Positions 1-24,966 of a stretch of DNA of 64,000 nt are shown one piece after another. Below the pieces are notes generated by a model that saw nothing but the letters and a program-made list of their open reading frames with translations, was not told the DNA's origin and ran no database searches. The position numbers and the translations under genes are program-made. Source of the stretch: a virus (taxonomy: Duplodnaviria; Caudoviricetes). The stretch's first letter is position 1. Each line of letters opens with the position of its first letter. The stretch lies in the IMG/VR virus record IMGVR_UViG_3300010348_000820, positions 4,820-68,819 of that record; one strand, written 5' to 3'.

Positions 1-485
1 ATTCCGCTCGCACTAATCTGATCCGCCAAGTTAGAAGAAACTAATACCCAATATGTTCCGTCATATCTGAAAGTATACCCTCTGTTCTTCTTTAATTCGC
101 CAACTTCAAAACCGATAAGATTACCATCAATGTCATATCTTTTTAAATATTTTGTTCCTAAACTATTTATATTTAATCCTACTGCACCATCGCTATCAGT
201 GCTTAATGATAAAGATATAAACATATTTGTAGTATAAGCGCTTATATCCGTAGTTGTGGCTTCATAATAATTTGCACTAATATAAGAGCCCCTGACATAA
301 TGCAAACCTAATTGTGCTAAAGATAATAAAGACGCATTGGCACTTCCTACCCAACTATCTATTAAATTCATGTTAGAAGTAGGAGAAACTCCTGCCTGAT
401 CTCCACGATATGTTGCAAATGTAGCACTTGCATCCGTTGTACTATTATAAATTTTTAAAGCTAAATTTGGAGTATTTAAAGGCAT
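1..485 (-). CDS. Tail fibre/virion structural protein, 5' part only (runs off window edge)
   Basis: Not in ORF track. Hand translation from ATG at 485 with RBS AGAAAGGAGG: MPLNTPNLALKIYNSTTDASATFATYRG...ELKKNRGYTFRYDGTYWVLVSS, open to position 1; located after baseplate genes. Confidence 0.6.
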   Translation of the reverse strand, partial: MPLNTPNLALKIYNSTTDASATFATYRGDQAGVSPTSNMNLIDSWVGSANASLLSLAQLGLHYVRGSYISANYYEATTTDISAYTTNMFISLSLSTDSDGAVGLNINSLGTKYLKRYDIDGNLIGFEVGELKKNRGYTFRYDGTYWVLVSSNLADQISASG

Positions 486-498
486 AAATTCCTCCTTT

Positions 499-996
499 CT
501 AAGAAATTGTGTAATCTAAATCTTGCAATGTTTGAGTATCCATAGTTGCTAAAGTCTTACCATCATGTTCCCATAATTGATAAAATTTAGCTAAAAGCGG
601 ATTTGTAGTAAAAGATATTTTAGGAATTTTTATAGATATAGGATCTAATTTGTATATAAGTTTTAGCGTAGCCACTAAAAGCGTTTTAGGTATTACAATA
701 GTATTTGTAATTTTTAATAGTTGTTTCATTGTAAATGTAAAAACAGTTTTCTTTAGTTTTAAAGCTAAAGTAGGTTTTAAAAGAAATTTTATCAATGAAT
801 TACTAATTGTTAATTTAACCTTAGGTATTTTATTTAAAACTGATAAAGCTATAGTAAACGTAGGATATAATACTACCATTCTAAAATATTGTTTAAAATT
901 TATTGTCCAACTTGCCGTCACACTTAAACCAAATATAGTCAATTCAAAACTGTGCTTATTTCTTATATATGAAATAAACGAATGTTGTTGAGTCAT
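499..996 (-). CDS. Hypothetical tail-module protein
   Basis: 165 aa ORF with RBS, co-oriented in tail gene cluster. Confidence 0.5.
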   Translation of the reverse strand: MTQQHSFISYIRNKHSFELTIFGLSVTASWTINFKQYFRMVVLYPTFTIALSVLNKIPKVKLTISNSLIKFLLKPTLALKLKKTVFTFTMKQLLKITNTIVIPKTLLVATLKLIYKLDPISIKIPKISFTTNPLLAKFYQLWEHDGKTLATMDTQTLQDLDYTIS

Positions 997-1005
997 AATA
1001 ACTCC

Positions 1006-1425
1006 TTAAGCATTAGTCATGCTTACAGTAACTGCTCCTATAGCAAACTGTACTGTTGTTGCCGTTTGTACCGTTTTAGGCACCGATAATGCTTCAAAAT
1101 ACCATATATCAGCCGTACCAACAGTTGCGCTTGCAGCTAAAAACACATAAGTTATCGTACCCCATGAGGCAGTGCTTTCTGTAAATGTTATTGCTGCAGC
1201 ATTAGTAAGAGATGCCGCTGAAGCAGTAGCCCAGTTTGTTTTGTTATTAACAATTGCAACACGAGCATATGCTGTGCCTGAAGTTGAAGGTTCTGTTGCG
1301 CCTGTACCGTCATTAGCAATAGTTGTCGTAGATAATCCCATATACATTGTTGATAAATTTGAAAAGGCAGTTGCACCGAATAAATAATCTAATACTTTGT
1401 TTGCTGCTGCTGTAGTAATTGCCAT
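1006..1425 (-). CDS. Tail fibre/baseplate-associated structural protein
   Basis: 139 aa Ala/Thr-rich; motif pattern (YMGLSTT...EPS...YARVAI...ITF...WGTITY) typical of a widespread phage tail protein family; RBS GAAAGGAG. Confidence 0.6.
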   Translation of the reverse strand: MAITTAAANKVLDYLFGATAFSNLSTMYMGLSTTTIANDGTGATEPSTSGTAYARVAIVNNKTNWATASAASLTNAAAITFTESTASWGTITYVFLAASATVGTADIWYFEALSVPKTVQTATTVQFAIGAVTVSMTNA

Positions 1426-1441
1426 ATAATTCTCCTTTCAA

Positions 1442-1804
1442 TTACACTGTGGCGTTTCGCCCTAATATAATAAGAACGCCTTGTGCGGGTCTATATTCTT
1501 CCCCGTCATAATCCAAAACAACTGGTTGATGCGTAAATTTCCCTTGTAAATTTTCTGTGCTGCTTCCACTTATAGTTACCTTAAATTGGTTGATAACAGA
1601 CCCAGTCAACGTTCCGTTAATTGTTAAAGCTGCATACTGAGGATTCCCGTAAGGGCTCATTACCCAATAGCAGGTCGCATTAGATAAATCCAACGGGGCA
1701 CTTGCACTATCATATATATCAAATGTCAATTCTTGAAGCGTACCACCTATAAATTGAAAAGGTTCTAAAGTATACGCCGATAAACACTCAAAAGGATTTG
1801 CCAA
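1442..1804 (-). CDS. BppU-like baseplate upper protein, N-terminal Ig-like domain
   Basis: 120 aa; LTFDIYD...PLDLSNAT pattern typical of BppU-N-like domains; tail context. Confidence 0.5.
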   Translation of the reverse strand: MANPFECLSAYTLEPFQFIGGTLQELTFDIYDSASAPLDLSNATCYWVMSPYGNPQYAALTINGTLTGSVINQFKVTISGSSTENLQGKFTHQPVVLDYDGEEYRPAQGVLIILGRNATV

Positions 1805-1805
1805 T

Positions 1806-2012
1806 TTATCCTCCTTCTTTTGTATCTTTATTTAAATCAATTGACTGATTTTCCTTATTTTTTTGATCTTGTAAATCTTTTATAATTTGCTCTAATCTTG
1901 CAAAAGCGTTTGCTAAAGCGTAAGCATTGCTTGATCCATGCACTGTTATTTGATTTAAAAAATTAAAAGTTTCTTCTAATAATTGTATATTGTTTTCACT
2001 TATATAATACAT
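1806..2012 (-). CDS. Hypothetical protein
   Basis: 68 aa ORF abutting neighbours in tail operon. Confidence 0.45.
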   Translation of the reverse strand: MYYISENNIQLLEETFNFLNQITVHGSSNAYALANAFARLEQIIKDLQDQKNKENQSIDLNKDTKEGG

Positions 2013-2030: not shown

Positions 2031-4961
2031 TTATACTTGATAACTATTTATCAAAATGCCCTTACTAAATACGAAAGCTCTTGTTGAAGCGCCAGTCGTA
2101 ACTTGATATGTAGCAGTAAGTCCAGCACTAGTCCCAGCATATAAATTGCTATATACATAAAAATTTTGGGCAGAAGAAGTTCCGCTACTTGTAAAATTAG
2201 AATAAACTCTATCTGTAACCTGAAGAGTGCCATCTATATAAGCACTATCATTAATTCTTGTATAACCACCTATGGTAGTTGTTCCAACAACCTCTAAATT
2301 ATTATTTAGTTTAGTATTTCCAGTTAGATTAATACCATTGCCACCATACATAGTTATTATTGCAGAGTCTGCTCGAATTTGAGCACCACCCCCATTAATA
2401 TTAACCCCCGTATTTGCCGTAAGATATATCATATTGGTCACATCTAATTTAATGTTGGCGCCAGTACCGCTTCCATATATAACCCCGCCCATAATTCTAT
2501 CTCCGCTCATCGTGCCATAAGTTAACTTACCAGCATTTAACCCTGAACCAATTTGAGAATCAGCAAGAGTACCTGATATTTTACTCGCAATTAAAGAACT
2601 TATTTGATCACTTGTCAAATATCCATCTATTTTATTAGCATAAATTGTCCCACCAAAAGTTGCACTTGTAGGCGTAATTGTTAATAGCCCAAGCTTAATA
2701 TAGCCATCACTACGGATATAATTACCATGAGTATCTTGCAATCTATCTGAAAGAATAGCCCAACCACCAATTGAGCCAGAAGAGGCAATAATTTGTCCTG
2801 TCATAGTTACATTACCAGAAGGATCTAAATAAAATTGATCAGTCCAAGTACCACCTATATTCTTTTGTATTTTTATACCGTTATTAGGATCTAATAGTAT
2901 CTTGTTATTGCCAGAAGATGTTGCTAATGATAATGTGGCATTAGTCAATGTCGCCCCACTACTATCAAATAAGAATGAGTTGTTTTGGTTAGTCATATAA
3001 AGATTATTACCAATCAACATTTTACCAACTAAAGCATCACCAACTACTCCATAATATTTAGTGCCATTTACATCTACTTCGCCTAATGCTAAACTGGACG
3101 TTTGCCATCCATCTTTGGTAAAACAAATAATACCATTATTCATCCACAATTGTTTGGGATCATATATAGCAGAAGAACTTATCGTGCTTGCACTTATAAG
3201 GTTTCTTACTCTAATACCTGTTTGATCTATAAGAACATTTTGTGTACTACCGCTTACAACATTATTGCGAGCTGTATCTAAACTTGATATTATAAAACTG
3301 CTTACATCATCTTGATAGTTTTTAGTCCAGCTTGACCATTGCTCAGAATTAAAACTTGTTGAAATAGATGAAGTATTATTACTATTTAAAAGATCACTGA
3401 GTTGGAAATTGCTATTATCTATTCTTAACCTGTTTGAAAATGTAAGCGAGAAATCTGACGGGTTATCATAATTCATGGATATTTCTAATAATGCAGGATA
3501 TACCATAGTATGACTGCCAGACGATGATACATAATCGGATTCATAAATATTAGACTCTCCGCCAATGTCAAGCGTAACTATTGTTCCTAATTCCAACTGA
3601 TTAGTAAATGGGAGATATTCTTTTAATGAAGTAAAGTTTACAGCATTTAATGAAAATTCATAGCGTGGTTGTGCTATTTTTTTAAGCACTTTTACTGCTT
3701 GATCATATAATCCTTGTGCCTGATCTTGAATTTCAGAATTTGTCATAATAGATGTTTGTATAAAGTTTTCATTTGTATATGTACTTCCAAACATAAAATT
3801 AGATAATTCTTCTTGAGCTTCCGTTGAAAAATTAGTATCAAAACTTAATGCTGTATTTATATCAGTAAGATCGGAAGTTGTTGTAGTTATTTGAGATTGA
3901 GTCAGTAGTATTGCCGTGTTTTTAGCATCTATTTCTAATTGTTTTGAAGCAAGTTGGCTATTTATATCAGTCAAGTCTAATCCTTGAGATATTCTTGCTA
4001 ATTTGACATTTTCTAATGATTTATACTCGCTTTGAAGATCCGTCAATTCAGATTGCTGAGTCAACAATATTTCATTATAATTTTGTAAAGTCGTAAGTAA
4101 AGAAGCATAATTACTTTGATTAGATTCTATTAGGGCTTCCCAATTATTCAAAGATGTTATTAATGACGCCGACATCCAGTTTGTATTTTCAAAATATGAG
4201 AAGTCATATATATTATCTGTACCTAACGGATTAACTGAATTTATTGAAAGATTCCCACCACCAGTTACAGTCAAACAAGTAACTAATTCATCTGTAATTT
4301 CTTTTACTTCTGTTTCTTTTACTAAATTATCATAAGATATAAATATATCTGAATCAGTTGTTGCATTTTCTATTGTATAAGCTGATATAGTTTTATTCAA
4401 TGTATCAAACTTAAATATGCATTGATATGTTTCAGAAATATCATTTGTTAAGAAAGAATATAACGTAGTATCATCAATATCAAATGTTCGATATAATATA
4501 GCTAATTCTGTATCAACTGTTCCAATTGTCCATCCAGGAATATATCCTATTAATGTATTTAATAACGCTGGAGAGGCAGATGTACCTAATGCATCATAAA
4601 ACTGATATGTACCTTCAAAAGATGTTACTTTTTTATAATTCATTATTGATTCTAAAGATTGGCATTTTACTTCTTTATACTTTTTAATGCCATCCCCATA
4701 CTCATTTATTTCTGTTATAAGAAAGCACATAATCCCATCTATTAGCACTAAACGTTTTGATTGTATCAATGAATAATAAGGAGTTTCAACACCATTAATC
4801 ATATAAGGCGCAATAAATTCAAGAGAAGATAATGCATTAAATCTATAAGTAACTTTTCTATCATATACTGTTCCAAGCACCATAAGTTGATCACCTGATG
4901 GATTGCATAGAATCAAAGTTACATCATCTGCCTGATCATAATAATTAAAATTGACTAACAA
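2031..4961 (-). CDS. Tail spike / tail-associated hub protein (Tal-like)
   Basis: 976 aa immediately downstream of Dit-like gene; N-terminal prophage-tail-like region, central coiled coil, beta-rich Gly/Ser-rich C-terminus. Confidence 0.75.
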   Translation of the reverse strand: MLVNFNYYDQADDVTLILCNPSGDQLMVLGTVYDRKVTYRFNALSSLEFIAPYMINGVETPYYSLIQSKRLVLIDGIMCFLITEINEYGDGIKKYKEVKCQSLESIMNYKKVTSFEGTYQFYDALGTSASPALLNTLIGYIPGWTIGTVDTELAILYRTFDIDDTTLYSFLTNDISETYQCIFKFDTLNKTISAYTIENATTDSDIFISYDNLVKETEVKEITDELVTCLTVTGGGNLSINSVNPLGTDNIYDFSYFENTNWMSASLITSLNNWEALIESNQSNYASLLTTLQNYNEILLTQQSELTDLQSEYKSLENVKLARISQGLDLTDINSQLASKQLEIDAKNTAILLTQSQITTTTSDLTDINTALSFDTNFSTEAQEELSNFMFGSTYTNENFIQTSIMTNSEIQDQAQGLYDQAVKVLKKIAQPRYEFSLNAVNFTSLKEYLPFTNQLELGTIVTLDIGGESNIYESDYVSSSGSHTMVYPALLEISMNYDNPSDFSLTFSNRLRIDNSNFQLSDLLNSNNTSSISTSFNSEQWSSWTKNYQDDVSSFIISSLDTARNNVVSGSTQNVLIDQTGIRVRNLISASTISSSAIYDPKQLWMNNGIICFTKDGWQTSSLALGEVDVNGTKYYGVVGDALVGKMLIGNNLYMTNQNNSFLFDSSGATLTNATLSLATSSGNNKILLDPNNGIKIQKNIGGTWTDQFYLDPSGNVTMTGQIIASSGSIGGWAILSDRLQDTHGNYIRSDGYIKLGLLTITPTSATFGGTIYANKIDGYLTSDQISSLIASKISGTLADSQIGSGLNAGKLTYGTMSGDRIMGGVIYGSGTGANIKLDVTNMIYLTANTGVNINGGGAQIRADSAIITMYGGNGINLTGNTKLNNNLEVVGTTTIGGYTRINDSAYIDGTLQVTDRVYSNFTSSGTSSAQNFYVYSNLYAGTSAGLTATYQVTTGASTRAFVFSKGILINSYQV

Positions 4962-5833: not shown

Positions 5834-5836
5834 ACT

Positions 5837-8800
5837 TTATACGCTAAAGGAGCTTGCATTTCGCATTATTCCTTTATTTTTAATAATATTCATTAATGTA
5901 TTAGATACTACATCTTTTATCTCAGGTAATACTGATTTGTCTAAACTTCCTGCAACATTAAAACTTAAATTTATATCTCCTATACTTGTTGATCCAGCAA
6001 GAGTATTCGTAAGATTAGGTAGAGTATTATTTATAAAGTTTTTCATTTGAGATTCTGTAGTTACAACTTCGCCTTTAAGAAGTTTTGCATATTCTTCCGA
6101 TTCTTTTATCTTTGGAAGATTATCCCCTACAACACCGCCATCATGATAAATTCTTATCATACTTGTAGTGCCAGCAGCTTGCCCTGCTTTTAATTTTAAT
6201 GCTGCAATTTGCTTGTCTAATTCAGCCTTTTCACCATAGCTTTTAGTTGCCGTTACAAAGTCATATGTATTATAAGCCGACAATGCTGATTGTATTTTAG
6301 CAGCAGCAGAATCCGCAGCTCTACCAACCCCAGCTAATGCTGTTCCCGCAGTATTAGCATATTCATTCACACTATTACTTGCTATAGCCCACTTATCAAT
6401 TATATCAGAGTCAATACCACTCCCATATAAACGATTCCACGCTATAAGCGATTGATAAAAACTATCTGTTTTAGCTTGCATCAAATCTATAGCTTCGCTT
6501 CGTATAGATCCTTCTTGCTCAAGATATTCTTTTAAAGTATCAATTCTTTCTTGCATTGATTCTTCATAAGCATCATATTCATCATCAAGTGCTTGCTTTT
6601 GAATATCATAACTTCTATCTGCCTGAGTTTCGTTTATATCTTCAGTTGCTTTAGCACGCTCTTCTTCTAATTCTAAGCGTCTTTTCTTAGCTTTTTCGCT
6701 ATTATCAAATTGAAGTTGTAAAAGTTCGTTATCAATGTCAGATAAAATCTTGTTTTTATCAGCAAGATCTTTTTGATAATCTGCTTCTTCTTTTTCTCTA
6801 TCTAACTTTTCTTTTTGAGCATCTATGATCTTTTTGTAATTATCTAATTCTTCTTCTAATGCATCTATTTCATCTTGCTTTCTTTGTTTAAGCATTTTGA
6901 TAGTCATATCAAGAAGATCATTATATGCTTCTAAAGCCTTATTAGTTTCGTTTTGAGCACTACCTACATCACCGATAGATTCAGCTAAAGCATTGTTCCA
7001 ATATGTTTGAGATTGTACTTGAGCAAGCAATGCTTCCGCTATAGATAAATCTGTATTAGCTTGAGTTAATGCAATTCCTTTTGCTTTTAAAACTGCTTCT
7101 TCAGAAGCAATTTTTAGTTTTGCGGCTCTTAACGTAGTATATGCTTCAGCACTAACTGCTTCTCCTAAAGCTTTAGCTATATATATCTCTTGAGACTTAG
7201 CATTTATAATCGCCTTAGTAGCTCCTAAAGCGGCAGAAGCTTTAGCATATTCTGCTTGTGCTGTTGTAGCCGCTTCTTTAGCAGAAGCTACTGCGGATTC
7301 CATTTTAGCAACAAGCAATTCTTTTAAACCATTAACATTTAATTTTATCTGACCATTTTGTATGCTTATTGCTTTTGTATAATTATTAACTCCGTTTATA
7401 GCATCAGCAGGAAATAAATCTTTCAATGAAGATATTTGATCTATACCTAAAACATCACCATCTTTTAAAGAAGATAATAAACTTTCTACTCCGTTTACTG
7501 CCTTTTGCGCAGCATCATAAGTTGCATCCGCAGACTCTTTTAACTTCTCATAAGAAATTTGTGGGACAATTGGCTTTTCTTCTATTTCTTTTTTTGTATC
7601 AGTCCAATATTTCCCTAAAGCTATATTAAAATCGTCAAACGACTGTAACTGTTCTTTAAGTTTACTCTTTTGTTCTTCTGTCAAAATACTCATAGAGTCT
7701 ATGGTATTTTGAAGATATTCAAGATTAGTATCTTTATATTCGTTTATTTGAGATTGATAACTTTCTATTTCTTCTGGAGATAATATGAAAGTTAATGCTT
7801 TCTCTACATCAAAATAATTTTGAGACTCAGATAGTTTATTTTGCCAATAATATGAATCTTCTATTGCTTTATTTAGATCATTTATATTCTTTAGATTATC
7901 TTCATATGCTTTAGCATCAGCCTTAATTGATTTTGCCGCAGATAACTGAGATTCTTCTCGCTTAAGATTTATTCTCTCTTGTAATAGTTTATTATAAGCA
8001 ACATTGCTATCTAAAGAAGATTGATCTATTTGATAATTGCCTAATTCGTCTACTTTCCCTTTTAAATCAGGCAGTAACGTCTTAAGTTCATTTTGTATCT
8101 CGTTTAATCTTTTTTGGCTTTCAGCAGATTTATCTGTACTTTTTGTTAGTTCATCGAACTCTTCTTTTAATGATTTTATTCTATTTTTCTTGCTTTCGAG
8201 TTCTTCTAACTCAGACGAAACCTTAGTCAAATCTTCTGTCGCTTTATCTGCTTTTTTATTTAAATCATAAACATCTTTTATTGCCGTATATAAAGATCCA
8301 ATAACTCCTACAAGAGTTAAAACTCCAGCAATAACCATCGGAATTGCTGAAAGTGCACTTGTAAATATATTGGCAAGACTTGTTTTTAGTTGTCCTGCGT
8401 CTATAGCTGTTTTTAATGTTGTAAAACTTTTACTTATCCCATCAATAGCGGTAGCTATACTTTCTCTTTTTAAGGATATAAAAAGGGAAAGGGTAGTTAG
8501 TATAATAGGAGTAAGTCCTCCCATTTTACTTGTTAAATTTCCAACAGCAGATCCAATATCATAAAACGCTTTGATTGCGCCAGAGTTTATGGTTGCTTGC
8601 CATACGGCTTCCCATGATGCTTTAAATTTGTTCATAGAAGCGTTTACACTATCAAGGAATATTTCGTATCTACTTTTAGCAATACCTGCACTACTCGATG
8701 CTGTTTCTTGAGCTTTTACTACATCATCCCACCCATCTAAAAGTGAAGCAACAATGTTTATCTGCCTCTGCCCAGCAATTGCCGTTAAAATTTGTCCTTG

Positions 8801-10312
8801 TGCTACTGTATTTCCTGCTTCACCTAATTCTTTATATTTTACTGCTACTTCTGATAATACAGTGTCCATATCTCTGAATGTATTTAGCCCATCGCGTAAT
8901 TGTATTCCATTAGCAATAAGAACTTTTTCAACATCATTGATCGCTTCACCTTCGTTATCTATAGCAGCACCCGCTTTCACAGATTCCATTCTGGCAAAAA
9001 TCGTTTTTAAAGCTTGTCCTATAGTATCCCCTGACTGCTGTGTTCTACTTATTAAAACACCTACGTAAGCAGCCAAATTCTGATAGCTAACTCCTGCTTG
9101 TTTAGCCATGCTTGACGCCTTTTGCATACCATTCGCAATGCCCTCAGTGCTGGCAGCTAAACTATTATCCAAACTTACCAATGTATCTACGATCCCAATA
9201 GAATCTTTAGCTGAAACATTATAAGCGTTTATAGTAGCAGTTAATTTACTTGTTGCATCAGCCGAATCAATATTACCAAGTTTAGCGAGCATCGTACTAT
9301 TCTTTAATAGTAGCATTGTATCAGACATTGAACGACCCTGGCGTATCCACTCGGTTGCTCCCTTGGCAACTTCAACCGTGCTACTGCCTAATTCTTGAGC
9401 CATATCATTGAACTCATTAGCCATCCCAGCTAATTCAGATGTCGATTGTCCTGTTACAAGACCAATATTTGTTAATTCAGTATTTAAATCTTTTACATAC
9501 TGAACACCCTCTTTAAAATCTCTTAATATGCCATAAATTGCTCCAGTAGCCAAAGCCCACTGGACAACTTTGCCTATATTTTTTACAAGAGCCGTTGTAA
9601 AATTGTCAGTTTTTTCCCTCGCAGTATTAAAACCTTGCTCTACTTTTACCGTTTCTGTTTTAAGAGAAGTGAAAGCGTTTCTTATATCTTCTGTACTTGC
9701 TTTACCTTGTCTGAAAGCATCTATGAGATTTAGCAGTTTATTTTCTGCAGTAGTCATCTCGTTGCTACCTATAGAAAAAGCGTCTTTATGTTTTACCTTT
9801 ACATCGTCTAATGTAAGTTTATATCCATCAGCTAAATCATTTAACCTTTTTTGCTTTAGAGACGCATCACCTATAGATTTTTCGACACTTTTAGCATTGG
9901 TGATTACTTGCTCACCATTTTCACCAATTTCCACAGTGTATTTATCAATTGTTTTTATACCCTCTGCAACTTTATCTACAGATACGGAATATTTTTGGAT
10001 CTTTGTATCATCAAAAATTTTGCTTACACTTACATTTTCGCCTAATCCAGCGAAACTTGCTCGTATTTTATCAACTTCTGCTGACATTGTAGACATTTTA
10101 TTAGCAGCATCTGTAAAATCAACTCCAGCAGCGATTCTGCCAGACGCTTTCTTTTTAATTTGATCTATTTTATCTATTATTTGACCAGCACCTACTAAAT
10201 TCATATCAAGATTAATTTTCAAACCTTTAGTTTGCCGGTTTATTTCTTCCTGCGTCATTTTTTGTATTACTGCTTTTAGCAATACGCTATAATTATTGCC
10301 CCCCGTAGCCAT
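5837..10312 (-). CDS. Tail tape measure protein (TP901-family core)
   Basis: 1491 aa, mostly helical Ala/Lys/Glu-rich; LNTELTNIGLVTG...STVEVAKGATEWIRQG core; C-terminal YHDGGVVG motif; upstream of Dit. Confidence 0.9.
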   Translation of the reverse strand: MATGGNNYSVLLKAVIQKMTQEEINRQTKGLKINLDMNLVGAGQIIDKIDQIKKKASGRIAAGVDFTDAANKMSTMSAEVDKIRASFAGLGENVSVSKIFDDTKIQKYSVSVDKVAEGIKTIDKYTVEIGENGEQVITNAKSVEKSIGDASLKQKRLNDLADGYKLTLDDVKVKHKDAFSIGSNEMTTAENKLLNLIDAFRQGKASTEDIRNAFTSLKTETVKVEQGFNTAREKTDNFTTALVKNIGKVVQWALATGAIYGILRDFKEGVQYVKDLNTELTNIGLVTGQSTSELAGMANEFNDMAQELGSSTVEVAKGATEWIRQGRSMSDTMLLLKNSTMLAKLGNIDSADATSKLTATINAYNVSAKDSIGIVDTLVSLDNSLAASTEGIANGMQKASSMAKQAGVSYQNLAAYVGVLISRTQQSGDTIGQALKTIFARMESVKAGAAIDNEGEAINDVEKVLIANGIQLRDGLNTFRDMDTVLSEVAVKYKELGEAGNTVAQGQILTAIAGQRQINIVASLLDGWDDVVKAQETASSSAGIAKSRYEIFLDSVNASMNKFKASWEAVWQATINSGAIKAFYDIGSAVGNLTSKMGGLTPIILTTLSLFISLKRESIATAIDGISKSFTTLKTAIDAGQLKTSLANIFTSALSAIPMVIAGVLTLVGVIGSLYTAIKDVYDLNKKADKATEDLTKVSSELEELESKKNRIKSLKEEFDELTKSTDKSAESQKRLNEIQNELKTLLPDLKGKVDELGNYQIDQSSLDSNVAYNKLLQERINLKREESQLSAAKSIKADAKAYEDNLKNINDLNKAIEDSYYWQNKLSESQNYFDVEKALTFILSPEEIESYQSQINEYKDTNLEYLQNTIDSMSILTEEQKSKLKEQLQSFDDFNIALGKYWTDTKKEIEEKPIVPQISYEKLKESADATYDAAQKAVNGVESLLSSLKDGDVLGIDQISSLKDLFPADAINGVNNYTKAISIQNGQIKLNVNGLKELLVAKMESAVASAKEAATTAQAEYAKASAALGATKAIINAKSQEIYIAKALGEAVSAEAYTTLRAAKLKIASEEAVLKAKGIALTQANTDLSIAEALLAQVQSQTYWNNALAESIGDVGSAQNETNKALEAYNDLLDMTIKMLKQRKQDEIDALEEELDNYKKIIDAQKEKLDREKEEADYQKDLADKNKILSDIDNELLQLQFDNSEKAKKRRLELEEERAKATEDINETQADRSYDIQKQALDDEYDAYEESMQERIDTLKEYLEQEGSIRSEAIDLMQAKTDSFYQSLIAWNRLYGSGIDSDIIDKWAIASNSVNEYANTAGTALAGVGRAADSAAAKIQSALSAYNTYDFVTATKSYGEKAELDKQIAALKLKAGQAAGTTSMIRIYHDGGVVGDNLPKIKESEEYAKLLKGEVVTTESQMKNFINNTLPNLTNTLAGSTSIGDINLSFNVAGSLDKSVLPEIKDVVSNTLMNIIKNKGIMRNASSFSV

Positions 10313-16022: not shown

Positions 16023-16588
16023 TTCGTCATAACAACCATATTTCCTCTATAAGGAATATTACCTCCCATAGAAGTTACCATTTTACATCGGGCACTTGCT
16101 CTCGAATCAAAATGCAATCTTCCTAAATATCCTACTTCTGCTCCATTAAAAACTTCTATAATTTGCTGAGAAAGTACTTGTAATCTCGATTGATAATTGC
16201 TTAAAGTTGATATAGAAAAATGCGTATATATTTCAAATCCCATAAAGATTCTCCCATATATATGATTCGTAGGAGTTAATTCAATAGGTGTTATTCTTAA
16301 AATAGATATTTTCTCATTTATTGATTGATCCATTCCAAAATCGAAGAATATTCTAAATCTTGAATAATCGGGATCTAAATCTCCATTATTTACCATTTCA
16401 CCTTTTTCTTTTACCGTAAGATTAGGGTGTGCGCTATCATTTTTATAAGCATCTTTATCATTATATTTTAGCAATTTCCATATTAGCTCATTATTATCCA
16501 TCATATATTTTACGCAATTGTACGATATTAAAGGATAATCTTCATATTTATTGTATACATCTGCTCGCATATCTGTCATATTTACCAC
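16010..16588 (-). CDS. Putative tail terminator/completion protein
   Basis: 192 aa; synteny in head-tail connector block. Confidence 0.45.
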   Translation of the reverse strand: MVNMTDMRADVYNKYEDYPLISYNCVKYMMDNNELIWKLLKYNDKDAYKNDSAHPNLTVKEKGEMVNNGDLDPDYSRFRIFFDFGMDQSINEKISILRITPIELTPTNHIYGRIFMGFEIYTHFSISTLSNYQSRLQVLSQQIIEVFNGAEVGYLGRLHFDSRASARCKMVTSMGGNIPYRGNMVVMTNWIG

Positions 16589-17619
16589 CTTCCAAGTAAT
16601 GAAATTTCAAATATTCTGCTTCCAGAACTACCAGAGCATAATATATTTAAGGGATAGTCTAAATACATTTCTGTATTATCTACTTTGAAAGTGTTATCAC
16701 TTAAGACAGAAAAGTCATAATATTGTTGAGGGACATTATTATCTGCTATGGAAAATACAAAACTCCCTGATATAATGCTACTACCACTATAATAACGAAC
16801 GTCAAACGTTTGTGATTCTCCCTCTAAAATTTCTCCATTATTAGGATTAACTACAATCGCGCTTACTGCTGAAGAACTTCCAGATGTAATATAAAGATAT
16901 CTGTCTGCTATGCCATTTACTAAGTCATCTAAACTTTCATTCACATAATCAATTTCCATTTTCAATTCAAGCAATTTAGAGCTATTATTATCATAGGTAC
17001 TTGTATTTAGAAAATTGCGTATACCTCCCCCTGCAACTCTAAAGGCTACCCATTTATTCTGATTCCCGATAATAAATCTTCTGTTTTCTGTAATCGTGCT
17101 CGTTTTGCTATTCTGTTGCAAATAAACCTTTATTGCACCATTTGGTGTAACTAAATTATCAGAAGACATATTATTATCAGTGCCTGCTATTTCATATTCT
17201 ATAGCACAGGGTTCGGAATATACTGAAGATCCAGAAATAGACATCCATCGCAAAACATTATTACATCTCCTGACTGTTAAAGAAGAAGTTAGTGTTTTTA
17301 TATTTTCAAGATTCCATCCAATCCATGTATTATCTGAAAAAACATATTTTTTGCCAACAAATACTTCGTGAGTAATATCTGGAAATAAAATCCTTTTAAA
17401 ATCATCGCCTAATCTTGTCTGTGTAAGCACATCCAAAGCAGAGGTTATTCTTACTTTGCTTGTTACAAATGATCCTGATCCTATTATATTTTCTTCTTCT
17501 ATATAATAAATATCTGAACTAACATCAAATAGATCAACTACAGACGCCTGAAAATGATCTATTAATACTGCAGAGGCGCTCATGTTCTCGTTAGGCATAG
17601 GGTAATATTTAAGTCCCAT
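16582..17619 (-). CDS. Putative head closure/neck protein with Ig-like C-terminal domain
   Basis: Start re-called at ATG 17619 (MGLKYYP) with RBS AAGGAGG; C-terminal IVVNP...LEGESQTFDV Ig-like segment; many SGS motifs. Confidence 0.55.
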   Translation of the reverse strand: MGLKYYPMPNENMSASAVLIDHFQASVVDLFDVSSDIYYIEEENIIGSGSFVTSKVRITSALDVLTQTRLGDDFKRILFPDITHEVFVGKKYVFSDNTWIGWNLENIKTLTSSLTVRRCNNVLRWMSISGSSVYSEPCAIEYEIAGTDNNMSSDNLVTPNGAIKVYLQQNSKTSTITENRRFIIGNQNKWVAFRVAGGGIRNFLNTSTYDNNSSKLLELKMEIDYVNESLDDLVNGIADRYLYITSGSSSAVSAIVVNPNNGEILEGESQTFDVRYYSGSSIISGSFVFSIADNNVPQQYYDFSVLSDNTFKVDNTEMYLDYPLNILCSGSSGSRIFEISLLGRW

Positions 17620-17632: not shown

Positions 17633-18112
17633 TTAGTAAACTGTGGTATCAAACATCTGATTATACCAATTGCCAAAATTGGTTCTTTTATATGAATAAT
17701 TTATCAATGCTTGACTTATTTCTTCTTGTAATGCGGAGTAATAATCTTGTTTGGACTTCAAATTCTGTGCCGCAGAGAATGTTTTAAAATCTCTATCACT
17801 AATAACATTGGAAATTTGCACAAGATCCTTAATTGTCTTTTCAAGCCAATATTTAGTCATTAATAATGATAGCATAACTTTATTTGGAATATTCAAATCT
17901 TCTGTAAAATATCCAATATTGCTCCCTGAACTTGTAACATAAGTTAATGTTTGATCTGCAAAATCAGAAAATTCATTAATTGCAAAAATCAACCAAGGCT
18001 CAACATAGATTGTTAAAGTAGAAGATCCAGAAGAAGAATATACAACGTCAAGTTTATGATCTCTTATTCGTGATAAAAATAAATCAACTATATCAGAACT
18101 TTGTGTAGACAA
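17633..18112 (-). CDS. Putative head-tail adaptor protein
   Basis: 159 aa helical; RDFKTFSAAQNL motif; synteny downstream of capsid genes. Confidence 0.55.
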   Translation of the reverse strand: MSTQSSDIVDLFLSRIRDHKLDVVYSSSGSSTLTIYVEPWLIFAINEFSDFADQTLTYVTSSGSNIGYFTEDLNIPNKVMLSLLMTKYWLEKTIKDLVQISNVISDRDFKTFSAAQNLKSKQDYYSALQEEISQALINYSYKRTNFGNWYNQMFDTTVY

Positions 18113-18179
18113 ATTTTCCTCCTTTCTATCGTTGTAATAGAAGAGAGTACCACTTTGACGCGATACTCTCTGTTGTAGT

Positions 18180-19277
18180 TTAAAATTTATAAGGTTTATC
18201 TATTAGTTTTTGATATAAATCAATTCTCTCTTTCACATGCAAATCTATATCTTGTGTTAAGGCAAATTGATAGCCAATATCTTCAGCTCTTTCTTTGTAA
18301 ATGGAAAGATTATCTATAGCATTAGAAATTGCATTTTCCCAATTTTCTTTTCCATTCTCTGTAAAAGAGCCATACTCACGTAAATGGTTATAATTGGGAT
18401 AGTCAGATGCAACAAAAGGAACTTTCAAAGCTAAGCATTCCAAAGGTTTAATTTGGCTTCTTCGTTTATCATATTCACCAGCTAAAGGAATTGTACAAAT
18501 ATCAATACTTTTAATTAATGCGGGATATTGTTGATCTGGGACAAAAGCACAAAACATTTTTTTATTATCTGCAATATCCAGTTCGTCATAAACTTTCTTA
18601 TCACCTGTAATAAGCACTTTTACATTAGGATATTTCTTGCATATTTTTCTATATGCCATCATAATCCCCGAACCTGCAAATGAATATCTATGTGATAAAC
18701 TTCCTGACCATCCAATCCAGATTTCTTTTTCAGAATGAGGGAATAAAGGTTTTACATCTTTATATCTATCTATTACTATATTATTATGAATGAAATACGT
18801 ATCATTCCAGTCAGCCCAATCATCGCATAATGCTTGTGATACCGTCTGTAAGCCTTTACTCATATGCACACCCCATTCCAATTGTATTTTCGGAATAGGG
18901 TTTATATAATTTATAAATTCTTCGCCTTTTTCATTCTTTCCTTTTATCTCTCCAAATTCCCAAAAATTATAAGCAGGATTGTCTTTATGCAATTTTCTAT
19001 AAGCATCATCAAATATTACACCAATACTTTTCCCACGAACTTTCCAAAACATCATCATTGTTAATGTATCTTGAAATAAATTTCTTTCAACCATAATAAT
19101 ATCTGCTTTAGAGCAAAGTTCTTGTGTTTCAGGGGAATTTCTTATAAATTCATTTATATGTATATACCGTGCAGTATGAACTCCTGTCTTATTAATAGCA
19201 TTCGTTGGATTTATACAATTGTGCAAGCTGCAATTAAATTCATGCGGTAAGTCCGCATATATATAGAGTACAAAAAT
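18180..19277 (-). CDS. Glycosyltransferase (GT-B fold, GT4-like)
   Basis: IGWSGSLSH and DICTIPL...RRSQIKPLECLALKVPFVASD motifs. Frame stays open upstream of the called TTG (19226) to an ATT at 19277 that lies 5 nt after TAGGAGGT, adding FVLYIYADLPHEFNCS. Confidence 0.8.
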   Translation of the reverse strand: MFVLYIYADLPHEFNCSLHNCINPTNAINKTGVHTARYIHINEFIRNSPETQELCSKADIIMVERNLFQDTLTMMMFWKVRGKSIGVIFDDAYRKLHKDNPAYNFWEFGEIKGKNEKGEEFINYINPIPKIQLEWGVHMSKGLQTVSQALCDDWADWNDTYFIHNNIVIDRYKDVKPLFPHSEKEIWIGWSGSLSHRYSFAGSGIMMAYRKICKKYPNVKVLITGDKKVYDELDIADNKKMFCAFVPDQQYPALIKSIDICTIPLAGEYDKRRSQIKPLECLALKVPFVASDYPNYNHLREYGSFTENGKENWENAISNAIDNLSIYKERAEDIGYQFALTQDIDLHVKERIDLYQKLIDKPYKF

Positions 19278-19312
19278 AATATACCTCCTATGTTATATTA
19301 TTTGAGAGTTAA

Positions 19313-20177: not shown

Positions 20178-21296
20178 TTACAGAGTAATGAGTCCGCCTA
20201 CACTCGAAGTATGCACACCCGTTTTCCAGAACTTAGTTAATGTATTGGTCTGAGTGAGATTAGCATTAGCATATACATCGGATGTATTTGACATCATAGT
20301 TCCACCTATAACGCATTTAACAATTTTATCGGTACTAGGAGCAACAATCCATAAAGAAGTATCACTGAGCAGAGTACTAAACGGAGTTTCCCAATTTGCT
20401 ACCTGAGGAAGTTCTAATGTTGACATTGAACCTATTTGCCTTACATAACCTAATTTTACAAATGGGCTTTCAATATCATAACGATAGTTACCATCATCAG
20501 GAAAAACCTTGGACAAGGCAACTTTTGTACCGATCATAATAGGCTGAGCACCACCACTGAAAGCCTGAACTTTAGCAGCAAGTTTCATCATATCTTCCAT
20601 TGTGTAGCCTGTTACCTGCAATCCGGTTGTAGCATCTGTGCTTAAGGCTGACATTGCGGCAGCAAACGCATTATAAATATCTTTATACATTTCGGTTTCG
20701 ATTGAGCGCAGACATTTCGTGACAAATATGCCAAGAGATTCCTGTCCAGTTAAAACACGGAACAAAGATACATATGTTGAAACCATATGAGCTTCAGGAT
20801 TCAAAGTAACCTGACGTTCAAAGCCCTTATGAAGTTCAGCTTCGCGCATACCCATACGACCAGTTTTGGTTACTGGGAACAGATCACGAGAACGAATATC
20901 AAAGATGGCAGTTTCGCCCCAACCAACAGTACGAACTTCGCAGAAAGCAGAAGTTCCATCAATAATTGTTTGAGGAAGAACCGCATCAATTAATTGAGTT
21001 TCAATATTGCCAATAGCCCAGTTAATCATAGGATGGTTAGCCATTTGAGAAGGAGGCATAGATGTTACATCAATTCCTGAAAGTTTTGATACTTCTTTCA
21101 GAATAAGTTTCCCGAGGGCTTCCTCTTTTTGAGAAAAGCTAATCGGGTTGCCATCCTTGCCTGTTTTAGCATACGGATACTGTTTAGTGCCATTCTCTGA
21201 ACGATAGTGGTTCCAGAAATCAGCAAAATTTTCAAACAATGCTACAGATTCGTCATCTCTGCAAAAAGAGATAACGCTTTTTGGTAATTTAGTCAT
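20178..21296 (-). CDS. Major capsid protein
   Basis: 372 aa downstream of protease/scaffold and decoration genes; VRTVGWGETAIF and related SPbeta-like capsid features; strong RBS, downstream hairpins. Confidence 0.8.
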   Translation of the reverse strand: MTKLPKSVISFCRDDESVALFENFADFWNHYRSENGTKQYPYAKTGKDGNPISFSQKEEALGKLILKEVSKLSGIDVTSMPPSQMANHPMINWAIGNIETQLIDAVLPQTIIDGTSAFCEVRTVGWGETAIFDIRSRDLFPVTKTGRMGMREAELHKGFERQVTLNPEAHMVSTYVSLFRVLTGQESLGIFVTKCLRSIETEMYKDIYNAFAAAMSALSTDATTGLQVTGYTMEDMMKLAAKVQAFSGGAQPIMIGTKVALSKVFPDDGNYRYDIESPFVKLGYVRQIGSMSTLELPQVANWETPFSTLLSDTSLWIVAPSTDKIVKCVIGGTMMSNTSDVYANANLTQTNTLTKFWKTGVHTSSVGGLITL

Positions 21297-21358: not shown

Positions 21359-21901
21359 TTATGCTTTATAAGCTTCTAGTTGGAATGCCACTATTCTTCC
21401 GTCACCAATTGCACTAGCTGACGCACAAGGAATATAAGTGGTTTTTAAATATTTCAAGCATTCGCCAGTAGACGGCGCAGCAGCCCATGCCCATTTAAAG
21501 TTACCAGTATCGTCAGGAACAGCATAAGCCTGAGGAGTTGCAGAGTCAAATGCTTCCGCAGTCAAAGTAATAATATCAACATTTGGCTCAAGTCTGAAAG
21601 CTGTAAAGACTTTACAAGCTGAAGTATAGAAATCCTGAATATTTCCAAGACCGTTATAAATATTATCCCCAGCAGTAGCAAAAGATAACTCAGGTTCACA
21701 TGCGATCCAGAGTCGAGTCTGGCTTGCACTTGACGGAGCTGTGGCTAAAAAGACTTCTCCTTCACCGGAAACACCTGTTTTTTGATTCAGGACAAAAATG
21801 TTTCCATTATCGATCGGTGAAGCACAAATTACAGGACGAAGCCGAGCATCAACATTTTTGGCTTCAACTTTACTCACTATTAAAACTGCATGATTTGCCA
21901 T
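21359..21901 (-). CDS. Head decoration/auxiliary capsid protein
   Basis: 180 aa beta-rich, between scaffold and MCP; IDNGNIF motif. Confidence 0.6.
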   Translation of the reverse strand: MANHAVLIVSKVEAKNVDARLRPVICASPIDNGNIFVLNQKTGVSGEGEVFLATAPSSASQTRLWIACEPELSFATAGDNIYNGLGNIQDFYTSACKVFTAFRLEPNVDIITLTAEAFDSATPQAYAVPDDTGNFKWAWAAAPSTGECLKYLKTTYIPCASASAIGDGRIVAFQLEAYKA

Positions 21902-23753: not shown

Positions 23754-23804
23754 GCAATATTACCCCCTTTCTAAAAGATATAACAAGATATCTTTTAAAG
23801 TTTT

Positions 23805-24008
23805 CTATTTAATTCTATCAAATTTAATAGCCAATTTTACCCAAAAAGGGGATAAATTTAGAATTTCTTTAAATAGATCAGTGTCTGCAAAATAATAAGA
23901 ATTCCCTTTCCTCGAAAGTAAAGGGAGATTTCTTTCTAAAAAATATTTTGCAACTAATTTATTACATTCTATTTTATTGCTTATTTTTTCAGGATTTACT
24001 ATATACAT
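23805..24008 (-). CDS. Small hypothetical protein
   Basis: Likely start MYIVN at 24008 with upstream GGAG; YYFADT motif. Confidence 0.45.
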   Translation of the reverse strand: MYIVNPEKISNKIECNKLVAKYFLERNLPLLSRKGNSYYFADTDLFKEILNLSPFWVKLAIKFDRIK

Positions 24009-24009
24009 A

Positions 24010-24531
24010 TTAACTCCAATTAGAAACAATATCTGGGAGAATTATCATATCAGCAATATCATGATCAAATCTCATCCAGTCGTTGTTATACGCTTTCCCC
24101 TTATCAACCAATAAAATACATTGATTTGTAATATGTGATAGCATCTTAATAAATTTCAATAGAAAAGAAGCAGTAGTAATATCTTCATCCTCAATAGCTA
24201 AATTATAGGACTCATAGCATAATGATTCTAAATCCGTCATAAATTCCAATATCTTCTCAAAGAACTCTTGCGGACTTCTATAGTCTGTATCGTCTAAAGG
24301 CGTAAATCCATAAACTGTAAGGCAATTTCTTTCAGACTGATATTCTGAAACAAAATCAGCTATTTGTGGAAATAGATGCGCTAATTTTTCATGTAGAATA
24401 CCGCTCGTTTGATTCATTACGAATTTAACATCAAGTACGCTCATCGCTCTATCGCAAACCCTGTTTCCAATAAAGCATTTTGTCACAATATCATTCAGTT
24501 TTGAATTAATTCTATCTGTAATCAAAGGCAT
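24010..24531 (-). CDS. Ferritin-like four-helix-bundle protein
   Basis: 173 aa; FFEKILEFMTDLE...AIEDEDITTASFL resembles ferritin/Dps helices C-D. Confidence 0.55.
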   Translation of the reverse strand: MPLITDRINSKLNDIVTKCFIGNRVCDRAMSVLDVKFVMNQTSGILHEKLAHLFPQIADFVSEYQSERNCLTVYGFTPLDDTDYRSPQEFFEKILEFMTDLESLCYESYNLAIEDEDITTASFLLKFIKMLSHITNQCILLVDKGKAYNNDWMRFDHDIADMIILPDIVSNWS

Positions 24532-24567
24532 AATCTTCCTCCTTCCTCAGGAAGTAATTCAAGCTCA

Positions 24568-24966
24568 TTAGAACGCAATGTAGGTTACAACATCGCCTGA
24601 AGCTAAAGGTAAAGGAGAACCACTTACACCACTTTCAACAATAATAGTTCCAGCCACAGATCCAGAAGTCCATTTTGCATTAATAATTGGGCTGCCACTA
24701 CGTAAATCTTGGCCAATAAAGCCCGTTACTTTTGCTAAACCAGTAACTAAAATAACTTTACTTGCAGAAGCTTCGCCAGATGTTACAACATGACTTGCAG
24801 AAACAGTAGCATTAGACTGTAATGTTGCAATACTGGTAGCAAGTGTACCTGTAGAAGAAGAAGCACTTGTAATCAGGTCGGAAACTATAGTACCAAGTAA
24901 AACATCTTTCGATGCTCTATTCATTTTATTTAAATTCTTTTTTTGTGATGCACTAATACTCGTCAT
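24568..24966 (-). CDS. Ser/Ala/Gly-rich putative virion protein
   Basis: 132 aa with seven S[AG]S motifs; RBS GGAGG; head module. Confidence 0.55.
   Translation of the reverse strand: MTSISASQKKNLNKMNRASKDVLLGTIVSDLITSASSSTGTLATSIATLQSNATVSASHVVTSGEASASKVILVTGLAKVTGFIGQDLRSGSPIINAKWTSGSVAGTIIVESGVSGSPLPLASGDVVTYIAF

Follow-up and report, generated by a model that had tools for sequence, protein, structure and literature searches.

A candidate virion O-glycosylation system with an S-(G/A)-S acceptor motif in a family of uncultured siphophages

The phage whose genome includes the 64,000-nucleotide stretch analysed here (the window) probably encodes its own virion O-glycosylation system, as judged from protein sequences and gene content. 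In the reading that we favour, with a probability of roughly 0.55, soluble enzymes of the phage itself would act in the cytoplasm of the host, as the particle assembles or earlier, and O-glycosylate the serines of S-(G/A)-S tripeptides on accessory virion parts that are exposed. The tripeptide is enriched well above expectation and restricted to five or six outer virion proteins, and its sites are conserved. Among relatives it is co-distributed with a family of glycosyltransferases (GTs) that belongs to a multi-enzyme cassette and that, in the window's clade, has been relocated into the head/neck operon.

Results

Across 33 open reading frames of the window S[AG]S occurs 37 times against 9.6 expected, a count reached by none of 5000 composition-matched shuffles. 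The virion module (1-26700) holds 35 copies against 8.9 expected, and the remaining 37 kb holds 6 against 3.3. SGS is the most enriched of all tripeptides (21 against 4.3, z 8.3), and SAS is enriched too (14 against 4.8). When shuffling was confined to blocks of 8-20 residues, S[AG]S still stood at 32 against 4.6-6.4 expected, and in this local-composition analysis SGS (20) exceeded its own permutations SSG (10) and GSS (7), as SAS (12) exceeded SSA (6) and ASS (3); STS, SNS and SDS were not enriched. Since codon usage differs from site to site, the signal lies at the protein level. The original prediction had called the motif abundant in several structural proteins; a recount gave identical numbers for each protein counted (7, 8, 5, 6, 2, 2, 2, 0 and 0), and the enrichment survived every composition control, the composition-matched null included. 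It did not disappear when Ser and Gly content was controlled, the counts holding in the shuffles.

The genes concerned are all on the minus strand. The 132-aa protein of the virion module, p132 (24568-24966), carries 7 S[AG]S against 0.8 expected. Its AF2 model (pLDDT 83) has helices at the N-terminus and a beta-sandwich at the C-terminus, and places all three SGS sites in loops; over 24 homologues, R-SGS at residues 90-92 hardly varies. A Foldseek search with this model gave no match below E 0.04, with a weak resemblance to phage fibre tips. The 180-aa decoration-like protein (21359-21901), encoded directly upstream of the capsid gene, has 2 SAS against 0.15 expected, and its family across the motif-rich genomes has 99 S[AG]S against 13.4. 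In the 159-aa protein at the adaptor position (17633-18112; 2 SGS against 0.17 expected), 25 motif-rich orthologues retain the residue-28 SGS, whereas the motif-poor ones have STT, SEP, SVP or similar.

Eight S[AG]S, against 0.5 expected, are found in a 345-aa protein (16582-17619), for which the listed open reading frame reaches 17676 and homologues begin at the ATG at 17619. It had been taken for a neck/Ig protein; the Ig-like domain, which is C-terminal, is confirmed, but the fold is that of a lambda gpV-like tube, with Foldseek matches to lambda gpV and T5 pb6 (probability 1.0) and also to the gpV Ig-like domain. According to the AF2 model, seven of the eight motifs fall in a loop, a turn or the linker between the domains, and four are in the Ig-like domain. 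The 341-aa protein at the major tail/tube position (14158-15183; 5 S[AG]S against 0.9 expected), whose orthologue in Enterocloster phage PMBT24 bears the annotation major tail protein, carries four of its five sites within the final 50 residues. Its C-terminal 120 residues constitute an extra domain, because the PHROG 2729 match spans residues 8-220 only. Further sites are present in the 976-aa minor tail protein or spike (2031-4961; PHROG 6211, minor tail protein), with 6 S[AG]S against 1.5 expected (p 0.004), and in a 120-aa distal tail protein (1442-1804), with 2 against 0.10 (p 0.004).

The major capsid protein (20178-21296; 35% identity with that of PMBT24) and the internal tape measure protein (5837-10312) provide the negative contrast. 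Both are motif-free, with 0.4 and 1.8 copies expected, respectively, and over the whole capsid family S[AG]S occurs 8 times against 15.4 expected.

The set of relatives comprised 61 motif-rich and 48 motif-poor loci. At the motif-rich loci the motif stands at 5-12 times expectation in p132 and in the decoration, adaptor, gpV-like and tail tube proteins only, compared with 0-1.4 times in portal, scaffold, capsid and the three connector proteins p242, p192 and p273. With the window left out, motif-rich relatives have 87.7 SGS per 10,000 residues against 23.6 SSG and 19.7 GSS, and 45 SAS against 12 and 11 for its permutations, whereas in motif-poor orthologues all of these tripeptides are at 4-8 per 10,000 residues. 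Between the window and one relative (L012) 71% of the sites are retained as S[AG]S, compared with 22% for all triplets, and for a second relative (L020) the values are 38% and 7%; such alignments support purifying selection on the S[AG]S sites. The matching columns of motif-poor orthologues hold variable polar residues (STT, ADA, TPK or similar) and no conserved Gly. As the same folds in the 48 motif-poor loci do without both the motif and the Gly, the motif is not a requirement of the fold.

The motifs had been predicted to occupy exposed loops, and in the predicted structures the sites are indeed mostly in loops or turns, within accessory beta-domains. The turn sites are flanked by the beta-branched residues V, I and T. 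Small flexible residues are expected in any case in loops and turns beside such residues.

The glycosyltransferase of the window is a 365-aa GT-B enzyme (18180-19277), predicted to be soluble, which is encoded between the adaptor and a 242-aa protein (p242), the latter downstream of the capsid gene. It matches PHROG 7162 (glycosyltransferase) and, at 3e-8, Pfam PF13692 (Glyco_trans_1_4, GT4-like; 34.5 bits against a curated cut-off of 27), the Pfam match covering residues 205-320 in the C-terminal nucleotide-sugar-binding Rossmann domain. The 18180-19277 reading needs a rare ATT start, 6 nt past an AGGAGG; this ATT lines up with the Met of homologues, and the N-terminus is conserved among relatives. 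The gene appears to be real, with ATT as its start codon. Its 69 homologues (39-100% identity) share invariant residues in the N- and C-domains, and an alignment of 29 homologues (43-79% identity) has 38 invariant columns, including K240, E280 and G189-W-x-G-S. Its atlas neighbours are viral GT1/GT4-type clusters. The GT family profile matched none of the PDB sequences (E up to 1), tblastn of the GT against 50,697 GenBank phage records gave no match, and NCBIfam gave none for the GT or for cassette proteins c3, c13, c31 and c15. Pfam assigns PF13692 and PF00534 only, the GtfA-type DUF1975 being absent from the window GT, and no second GT-B that could be a paired GtfB adjoins it or lies within the cassettes. 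Neither the GT nor any of 16 cassette proteins has a transmembrane segment, defined as 19 residues reaching a Kyte-Doolittle value of 1.6.

In most relatives the GT-B sits in an all-soluble multi-transferase cassette away from the head/neck operon. This cassette contains GT17-like, GT25-like, GT2 and GT-B enzymes, with an FkbM methyltransferase or a NAD-dependent epimerase in some relatives, and its neighbours are an NT5C nucleotidase, a ribonucleotide reductase and a DNA adenine methylase, not late genes. In its predicted content of several GTs, a sugar methyltransferase and an epimerase, it resembles a protein-glycan kit. Judged by gene order, the GT-B has been relocated to the p242/adaptor junction in the head/neck operon in the window's clade only. 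Matches to the GT family HMM within 10 kb on either side of the capsid gene are confined to this clade, and a close relative (G024) has the cassette minus GT-B at 50-55 kb. The window's own record, which is 52% complete, contains the GT-B alone, with no GT2 or further cassette gene. The location between capsid and neck genes given in the original prediction stands, but the enzyme is a member of a cassette and not a stand-alone operon enzyme. The p242/adaptor junction is an insertion hotspot for homing endonucleases; the presence of other GTs in this gap in other phages was ruled out, the fillers being HNH and GIY-YIG homing endonucleases.

The predicted co-occurrence of motif and GT across relatives is borne out. 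All 13 genomes that carry a GT of the A2 family, to which the window GT belongs, are motif-rich (observed/expected 4.2-8.6), while all 14 near-complete genomes without this family are motif-poor (0-3.2). A non-phylogenetic Fisher test on the 12 GT-positive and 14 GT-negative genomes of the tree gives p 1e-7. Mapped on the capsid tree, the GT and the motif each change state only twice, on the same two branches, and because there are just two independent contrasts a sign test cannot be significant. In a nested sister pair both traits switch together, L134 being GT-positive and motif-rich and L029 (91% complete) GT-negative and motif-poor. The four GT-negative genomes searched for these Pfam families, PMBT24, G007, G025 and G027, have no PF00535 or PF13692 enzyme either. 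GTs can have other functions in this group of phages, since the motif-poor G006 and G008 encode GTs that are unrelated to this family.

Motif-rich contigs in which no GT was found are G020 (63% complete), G005 (50%) and G003, G004 and G021-23 (at most 40%), and they are not decisive because all are incomplete. G020 was compared with G011 for a cassette beyond the end of the G020 contig, and the regions are not collinear. Loci L006 and L008-L019 lack the GT at the junction, which had suggested that the motif persists in GT-lacking relatives, contrary to the original prediction; this was dropped, since whole contigs show the GT elsewhere in those lineages. Three unrelated phages of ~100 kb with 30%-identical GT homologues have a genome-wide S[AG]S count of only 1.4-1.7 times expectation, not clearly concentrated in structural proteins, so distant GT homologues are not tracked by the motif.

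Discussion

The proposal that S-[AG]-S is an acceptor sequon on the virion gains from the enrichment, the conservation, the loop positions and the match with the GT, and is tempered by the fact that only two independent changes underlie that match. The putative acceptors would be p132, the adaptor and decoration-like proteins, the distal tail proteins and, in each of the two tube-type proteins, the Ig-like domain. We infer that their serines are modified by the GT set, in which the GT-B at 18180-19277 would be one enzyme and the GT17-like, GT25-like and GT2 enzymes the others, in some phages with an FkbM-type methyltransferase or epimerase. The remaining cassette genes of the window's clade would lie elsewhere in the genome, beyond the 52%-complete record. 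The glycan could shield the particle from proteases, antibodies or host receptors, or could aid adsorption. A priming role for the GT-B is speculative, drawn solely from its move into the late operon. In a fuller version, to which we give somewhat less than even odds, a soluble multi-GT kit encoded by the phages would recognise S-(G/A)-S as a genuine minimal sequon for O-glycosylation. The kit would have been gained a single time in a large family of uncultured siphophages (~100-170 kb), some lineages having lost it and the sequon together, and the GT-B, placed in the late operon under a weak ATT start, would be the protein-priming enzyme.

Motif and cassette might instead be unrelated and share a clade by chance, which we consider unlikely. 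The motif would then be a lineage-specific structural or interaction feature of the accessory domains, such as tight turns or contacts with another virion component, and the GTs would modify something outside the virion, for instance a host cell-wall polymer (teichoic acid, S-layer glycan) or a small molecule. There are just two independent co-changes on the tree, V, I and T border the sites, which lie in turns, the cassette of most relatives lies in an early/nucleotide-metabolism region, and G006 and G008 are motif-poor with unrelated GTs; soluble cytoplasmic GT-B/GT-A enzymes that glycosylate wall teichoic acid are also known, according to a report on TarS (PMC5156392). However, a requirement of the fold is unlikely given the 48 motif-poor loci, and the restriction of the middle residue to G or A with flanks of Ser, not Thr, indicates recognition rather than flexibility. 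In addition, the L029 lineage lost GT and motif together, and the cassette has no membrane or flippase component. The capsid alignment found no relative in one genome per species of 185,579 prokaryote species, and this absence of a prophage relative argues against lysogenic conversion.

It is improbable that S-(G/A)-S serves a modification independent of the phage GTs, such as host O-glycosylation, phosphorylation or another, with the motif-rich phages sharing a host group that has the machinery. Such a modification would agree with sites that look like a sequon (conserved, dependent on residue order, located in loops and on outer proteins) and with the fact that the sole cultured relatives, phages of Enterocloster, are motif-poor, but it leaves unexplained both the perfect GT-motif match across 27 genomes and the move of the GT-B to the late structural operon in the window's clade.

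Lower still is the probability that phage DNA is what the cassette glycosylates, in a hypermodification that counters restriction, and that the motif is coincidental. The nucleotidase, ribonucleotide reductase and DNA adenine methylase beside the cassette fit this function, and the T4 glucosyltransferases have a GT-B fold. Against it, a hydroxymethylase of the thymidylate-synthase family (PF00303) is found in none of the 7 GT-positive genomes searched, all at least 91% complete, whereas 10 of 14 control genomes match, and a search without a positive control gave no TET/JBP match. To our knowledge, four or five GT families with a sugar methyltransferase are also atypical of known DNA sugar modifications, and the co-distribution with the motif would be left unexplained. 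Finally, an origin of the enrichment in Ser/Gly-rich composition or in low-complexity patches, suggested by the 10-18% Ser of the enriched proteins, is effectively refuted by the permutation contrast (SGS 2- to 4-fold above SSG/GSS, STS not enriched), with whole-protein and 8-20-residue block shuffles both falling short of the counts and orthologues with 7-8% Ser showing no ordering bias.

We know of experimental demonstrations of virion glycosylation by phage-encoded enzymes in mycobacteriophages only. What is offered here is a sequence-defined candidate acceptor motif with a matching enzyme family, and a natural set of relatives with and without the motif, in a low-GC family of phages quite unlike these. 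If self-glycosylation of the virion is correct, sequence alone would suffice to predict both its occurrence and exactly which serines are modified, and phage self-glycosylation would extend far past the actinobacteriophages. Glycan coats would become readable from metagenomic phage genomes, with consequences for host range, for the stability of particles and for how immunogenic therapeutic phages are; virion glycosylation weakens the neutralising antibody response in mycobacteriophages, as stated in a paper citing Freeman 2023 (PMC11600133). A compact serine sequon with soluble transferases would also be of use in glyco-engineering.

Among known systems, the Gtr type, which builds envelope glycans on a lipid carrier, differs in that no membrane-embedded component, GT or flippase, is present among the GT-B and 16 cassette proteins here, and T4-type DNA hypermodification in that PF00303 is absent from the 7 GT-positive genomes. 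In Firmicute serine-rich adhesins with alternating serines, a GT-B primes and further GTs extend the glycan in the cytoplasm (PMC6973325, PMC5207161). The GtfA/GtfB adhesin system shares with the present one the alternating serines with one small residue between them, and a cytoplasmic GT-B with variable soluble GTs. However, the window GT is without DUF1975 or a GtfB partner, and here the sites are isolated tripeptides in folded domains, not long disordered repeats, with no accessory Sec export. SASSAS, a signature motif of Lactobacillaceae S-layer proteins, figures in a review's discussion of glycosylation (PMC10221546). It is likewise a Ser-Ala-Ser type motif linked to protein glycosylation, on a Firmicute surface-array protein, but it is a single host-encoded hexapeptide site in a non-viral system whose transferase is not identified. 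The chlorovirus PBCV-1, a giant virus of eukaryotes whose major capsid protein bears N-linked glycans, has enzymes unrelated to those considered here. A soluble multi-GT set of the virus's own is what is proposed here for virion proteins, and the virus-encoded multi-GT machinery of PBCV-1 likewise decorates virion proteins independently of host membranes, as described in a review (PMC9614988).

In the mycobacteriophages Che8, Corndog and Myrna, capsid and tail-tube proteins are modified by tandem GTs encoded beside an O-methyltransferase, according to secondary accounts (PMC11600133, PMC12582341, PMC12894461) of Freeman et al. 2023 (Cell Host Microbe). The likeness lies in tandem phage GTs with an O-methyltransferase, in soluble enzymes, in capsid-associated and tail-tube acceptors (candidates in our case), and in tail-tube sites that cluster at the C-terminal end, as do four of five here. 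By contrast, the present phages are low-GC siphophages of ~100-170 kb whose sole cultured relatives infect Enterocloster, the motif is missing from the major capsid protein and present in a separate decoration-like protein, and the candidate sites form a short S-(G/A)-S motif over loops of at least five proteins, known from sequence alone. As in the mycobacteriophage type, several GTs occur with a methyltransferase in the relatives, the 52%-complete record of the window having the GT-B only, and the acceptor motif is found only alongside the GTs (13/13 against 14/14 genomes, in two independent contrasts).

Motif statistics in the virion module

The IMG/VR viral record (68.8 kb) is estimated to be 52% complete, and its closest cultured relatives are Enterocloster bolteae siphophages of about 100 kb, such as PMBT24 (35% capsid identity). 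A search of 185,579 prokaryote species genomes for relatives of the capsid family gave no match. The window has a G+C content of about 30% and carries all of its virion genes on the minus strand, in an order that starts with the portal (25067-26689) and continues with p132 (132 aa, 24568-24966), p173 (173 aa), a 602-aa protein in the scaffold position, a 180-aa decoration-like protein (21359-21901), the major capsid protein (20178-21296) and p242 (242 aa). The glycosyltransferase (GT, 18180-19277) lies between p242 and a 159-aa protein in the adaptor position (17633-18112), which is followed by a 345-aa gpV-like protein (16582-17619), by p192 and p273 (192 and 273 aa) and by a 341-aa protein in the tail-tube position (14158-15183). 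An M23-type metallopeptidase (11516-12217) separates the tail-tube region from the tape measure (5837-10312), after which come Dit, a 976-aa minor tail protein (2031-4961) and small distal tail proteins. A fibre protein resembling gp80 of podophage GP4 (PF23140, 5e-24) is encoded at 1006-1425, at the distal end of the tail module.

The original prediction proposed that the GT O-glycosylates the virion at S-[AG]-S motifs, and its motif counts were reproduced exactly for every protein. In the left arm (33 ORFs) there are 37 motifs, against 9.6 expected from shuffles of each protein's own residues, and SGS is the most over-represented tripeptide of all (21 vs 4.3, z = 8.3). The excess over Ser/Gly composition also survives shuffling in blocks of 8-20 residues (32 still observed, ~5 expected). 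In the window, SGS (20) is more frequent than its permutations SSG (10) and GSS (7), as is SAS (12) relative to SSA (6) and ASS (3), and this contrast between tripeptides of equal composition rules out composition as the cause. STS, SNS and SDS are not enriched in the window proteins. The codons at the SGS/SAS sites vary, so the signal sits in the protein. The virion module holds 35 motifs (8.9 expected) and the 38 other window genes 6 (3.3 expected). The S-[AG]-S pattern is real and highly non-random.

Conservation of the motif across relatives

Related loci were gathered around relatives of the capsid gene in three scans, and the portal-scaffold-decoration-capsid-p242-adaptor-gpV-like-p192-p273-tube module is kept throughout. 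Motif density is bimodal across loci, with 61 rich loci (at least 7.5 motifs per 1000 residues over five carrier proteins) and 48 poor ones (at most 3). The rich group contains 97 motifs in p132 (11.8 expected), 99 in the decoration protein (13.4), 55 in the adaptor (4.9), 262 in the gpV-like protein (22) and 152 in the tube (29), an enrichment whose size is partly circular, since the split is defined on these five carriers themselves. The bimodality is not circular, and neither is the contrast with the portal, scaffold, capsid, p242, p192 and p273 proteins, which in the rich group are at or below the expected number. Rich genomes other than the window contain 87.7 SGS per 10,000 residues vs 23.6 and 19.7 for its permutations, and in poor genomes all three tripeptides occur at 4-8 per 10,000.

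The usual context of a site is [T/S/V]-S-[G/A]-S-[A/S/P]-[V/I/T]. Site conservation is far over background; in locus L012, for example, 71% of the window sites are still S[AG]S vs 22% of triplets identical. The same columns of poor orthologues show STT, ADA, TPK, SQT and similar triplets, with no conserved glycine. Selection therefore maintains the motif in some lineages, while the fold can do without it.

Co-distribution of the glycosyltransferase family and the motif

Near the capsid gene (±10 kb), only the window's own clade carries the GT family, and motifs seemed to persist in GT-lacking relatives, which, taken by itself, is one of the outcomes that the original prediction named as refuting it. 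Whole-contig searches reverse this, as large relatives carry the same GT family elsewhere in the genome (36-64% identity). The co-occurrence expected from the original prediction was found across the relatives: 13 of 13 genomes with both GT family and virion module (the window, G024, G001, G002, G010, G011, G013, G014, G015, G016, G026, G028 and G029) are motif-rich, with observed/expected ratios of 4.2-8.6 for nine proteins summed, and 14 of 14 genomes without the family (88-100% complete; PMBT24, G007, G025, G027, G035, G038-G042 and G044-G047) are motif-poor (ratios 0-3.2). Four of the latter (PMBT24, G007, G025 and G027) were tested for Pfam families, and no GT2 or Glyco_trans_1_4 enzyme was found in them.

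With phylogeny ignored, a 2x2 test on the 26 genomes of the capsid tree (12 with the GT, 14 without) yields p = 1e-7; G014 was left off the tree because its capsid gene is split. That gene matches two ORFs ~900 nt apart (G014:C1:22196-24014; loci L130/L131 and L137) in a complete genome with direct terminal repeats, and an intron or homing element probably interrupts it. On the tree, GT and motif undergo just two changes each, which coincide on the same pair of branches: both are gained at the base of the rich clade and lost in the lineage of G007 (locus L029), whose sister G011 (locus L134) has the GT and is rich. These two contrasts are independent and concordant, but too few for significance. 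In a larger tree, rich and poor states switch at least six more times, among short contigs that do not show the GT state. Rich fragments without a detected GT (G020, 63% complete; G005, 50%; five others, at most 40%) are not decisive, since complete genomes have the cassette at a distance of 30-95 kb from the capsid gene. Two poor fragments, G006 and G008, encode GTs unrelated to the window's family; it is therefore this family, rather than GTs at large, that is associated with the motif. The G006 enzyme is a 442-aa GT-B (L092, G006:C1:66777-67190), and that of G008 a 927-aa open frame with GT2 and GT-B domains (L093/L094, G008:C1:68143-70077).

Glycosyltransferase gene and its relocation

The GT gene is real: its product scores above the cut-off for Pfam Glyco_trans_1_4, also hits a PHROG glycosyltransferase family, and has 69 metagenomic homologues (39-100% identity). 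The 365-aa reading requires an ATT start, 6 nt after AGGAGG (19275-19290, minus strand). In more distant homologues the initiator Met aligns with this codon, and two close relatives, L096 and L097, have ATT and ATC there, respectively, with the N-terminal strand conserved; translation appears to start at ATT. A start this weak could limit the enzyme to catalytic amounts despite the high expression of the late operon.

In the relatives, the GT family belongs to a cassette of soluble enzymes and proteins with the conserved order c13, GT17-like, GT25-like, c3, GT2 and GT-B (c13 and c3 being uncharacterised proteins), near which some genomes encode an FkbM methyltransferase or an NAD-dependent epimerase/dehydratase. 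A tyrosine recombinase of the phage integrase family lies directly downstream of GT-B in five relatives (L105, 12360-13286; L109, L112, L114 and L115). G024, a 100-kb close relative (82% capsid identity), has its GT-B at the head/neck junction, as in the window, and the remaining row is intact at 50-55 kb (L144, G024:C1:50000-55000), as c13, GT17-like, c31, GT25-like, c3, GT2 and then a DNA adenine methylase, the usual slot after GT2 being empty of GT-B. This arrangement indicates that one enzyme of the kit was transferred from the cassette to the late structural operon in this clade. The p242/adaptor junction, which bears the GT in the window (18113-19312), is empty in many rich relatives and elsewhere holds HNH homing endonucleases (L020, 12096-13136; L023, 12133-13143; L024, 12059-13126) or GIY-YIG/AP2-type endonucleases (L038, 12824-13603; L044, 11860-12546). 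The junction is therefore an insertion hotspot, which may explain the relocation. No GT2 is visible in the window's own record, 52% complete, and the other kit members are presumably in the unsequenced half of the genome.

Motif positions on structure models

The original prediction described the gpV-like protein as a neck/Ig protein. The Ig-like domain, at the C-terminus, is confirmed, but the body of the AF2 model (pLDDT 80) has a tube-protein fold, with Foldseek matches to lambda gpV, T5 pb6 and the isolated gpV Ig-like domain; the phage therefore has two tube-type proteins (16582-17619 and 14158-15183). Homologues begin at ATG 17619 rather than TTG 17676, so that the gene no longer overlaps that of the adaptor. 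Of the eight motifs in the gpV-like protein, seven fall in loops, beta-turns or the linker between the domains, and the Ig-like domain contains four. The p132 model (pLDDT 83) combines N-terminal helices with a beta-sandwich, all three SGS sites being in loops, and the R-SGS site at residues 90-92 hardly varies among 24 homologues. In the tube protein, four of five sites are in the last 50 residues, outside the structural-protein PHROG match. The two closest relatives with the GT (L003 and L004) have no BLAST-detectable p132 or p173, and their portal-scaffold interval (about 3105-3887 and 2894-3867) is 0.8-1.0 kb of different sequence.

Alternative explanations

Virion O-glycosylation by phage enzymes is the best available explanation, to which we give a probability of roughly 0.55, on comparative grounds provided by two independent evolutionary events. 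The GTs possibly glycosylate teichoic acid in the cytoplasm instead. Modification of the serines independently of the phage GTs would leave the co-distribution of GT and motif unexplained. The cassette might also glycosylate DNA, but a thymidylate-synthase-type hydroxymethylase is present in none of seven genomes with the GT (all at least 91% complete), whereas 10 of 14 control genomes matched, and a search run without a positive control gave no TET/JBP match. A purely structural motif fits poorly, as it is missing from orthologues with the same folds. Envelope modification via lipid carriers is unlikely, since there is no membrane component; no transmembrane segment was found in any cassette protein.

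Comparison with known systems

For virion O-glycosylation, the phage offers a defined candidate sequon and a soluble multi-GT kit, and its natural motif-plus and motif-minus relatives are a ready test set. By function, the closest system would be the virion glycosylation of mycobacteriophages, in which capsid and tail-tube proteins are reported to be modified by tandem GTs adjoining an O-methyltransferase (PMC11600133, PMC12582341). The proposed mechanism most resembles the glycosylation of serine-rich repeat adhesins, where a cytoplasmic GT-B primes alternating serines and a variable set of GTs extends them (PMC6973325). In contrast to the adhesin-priming enzymes, the window GT has neither a DUF1975 domain nor a GtfB partner, and is therefore not a member of that family. 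For S-layer proteins of Lactobacillaceae, a signature motif of the Ser-Ala-Ser type, SASSAS, has been described in connection with their glycosylation (PMC10221546).
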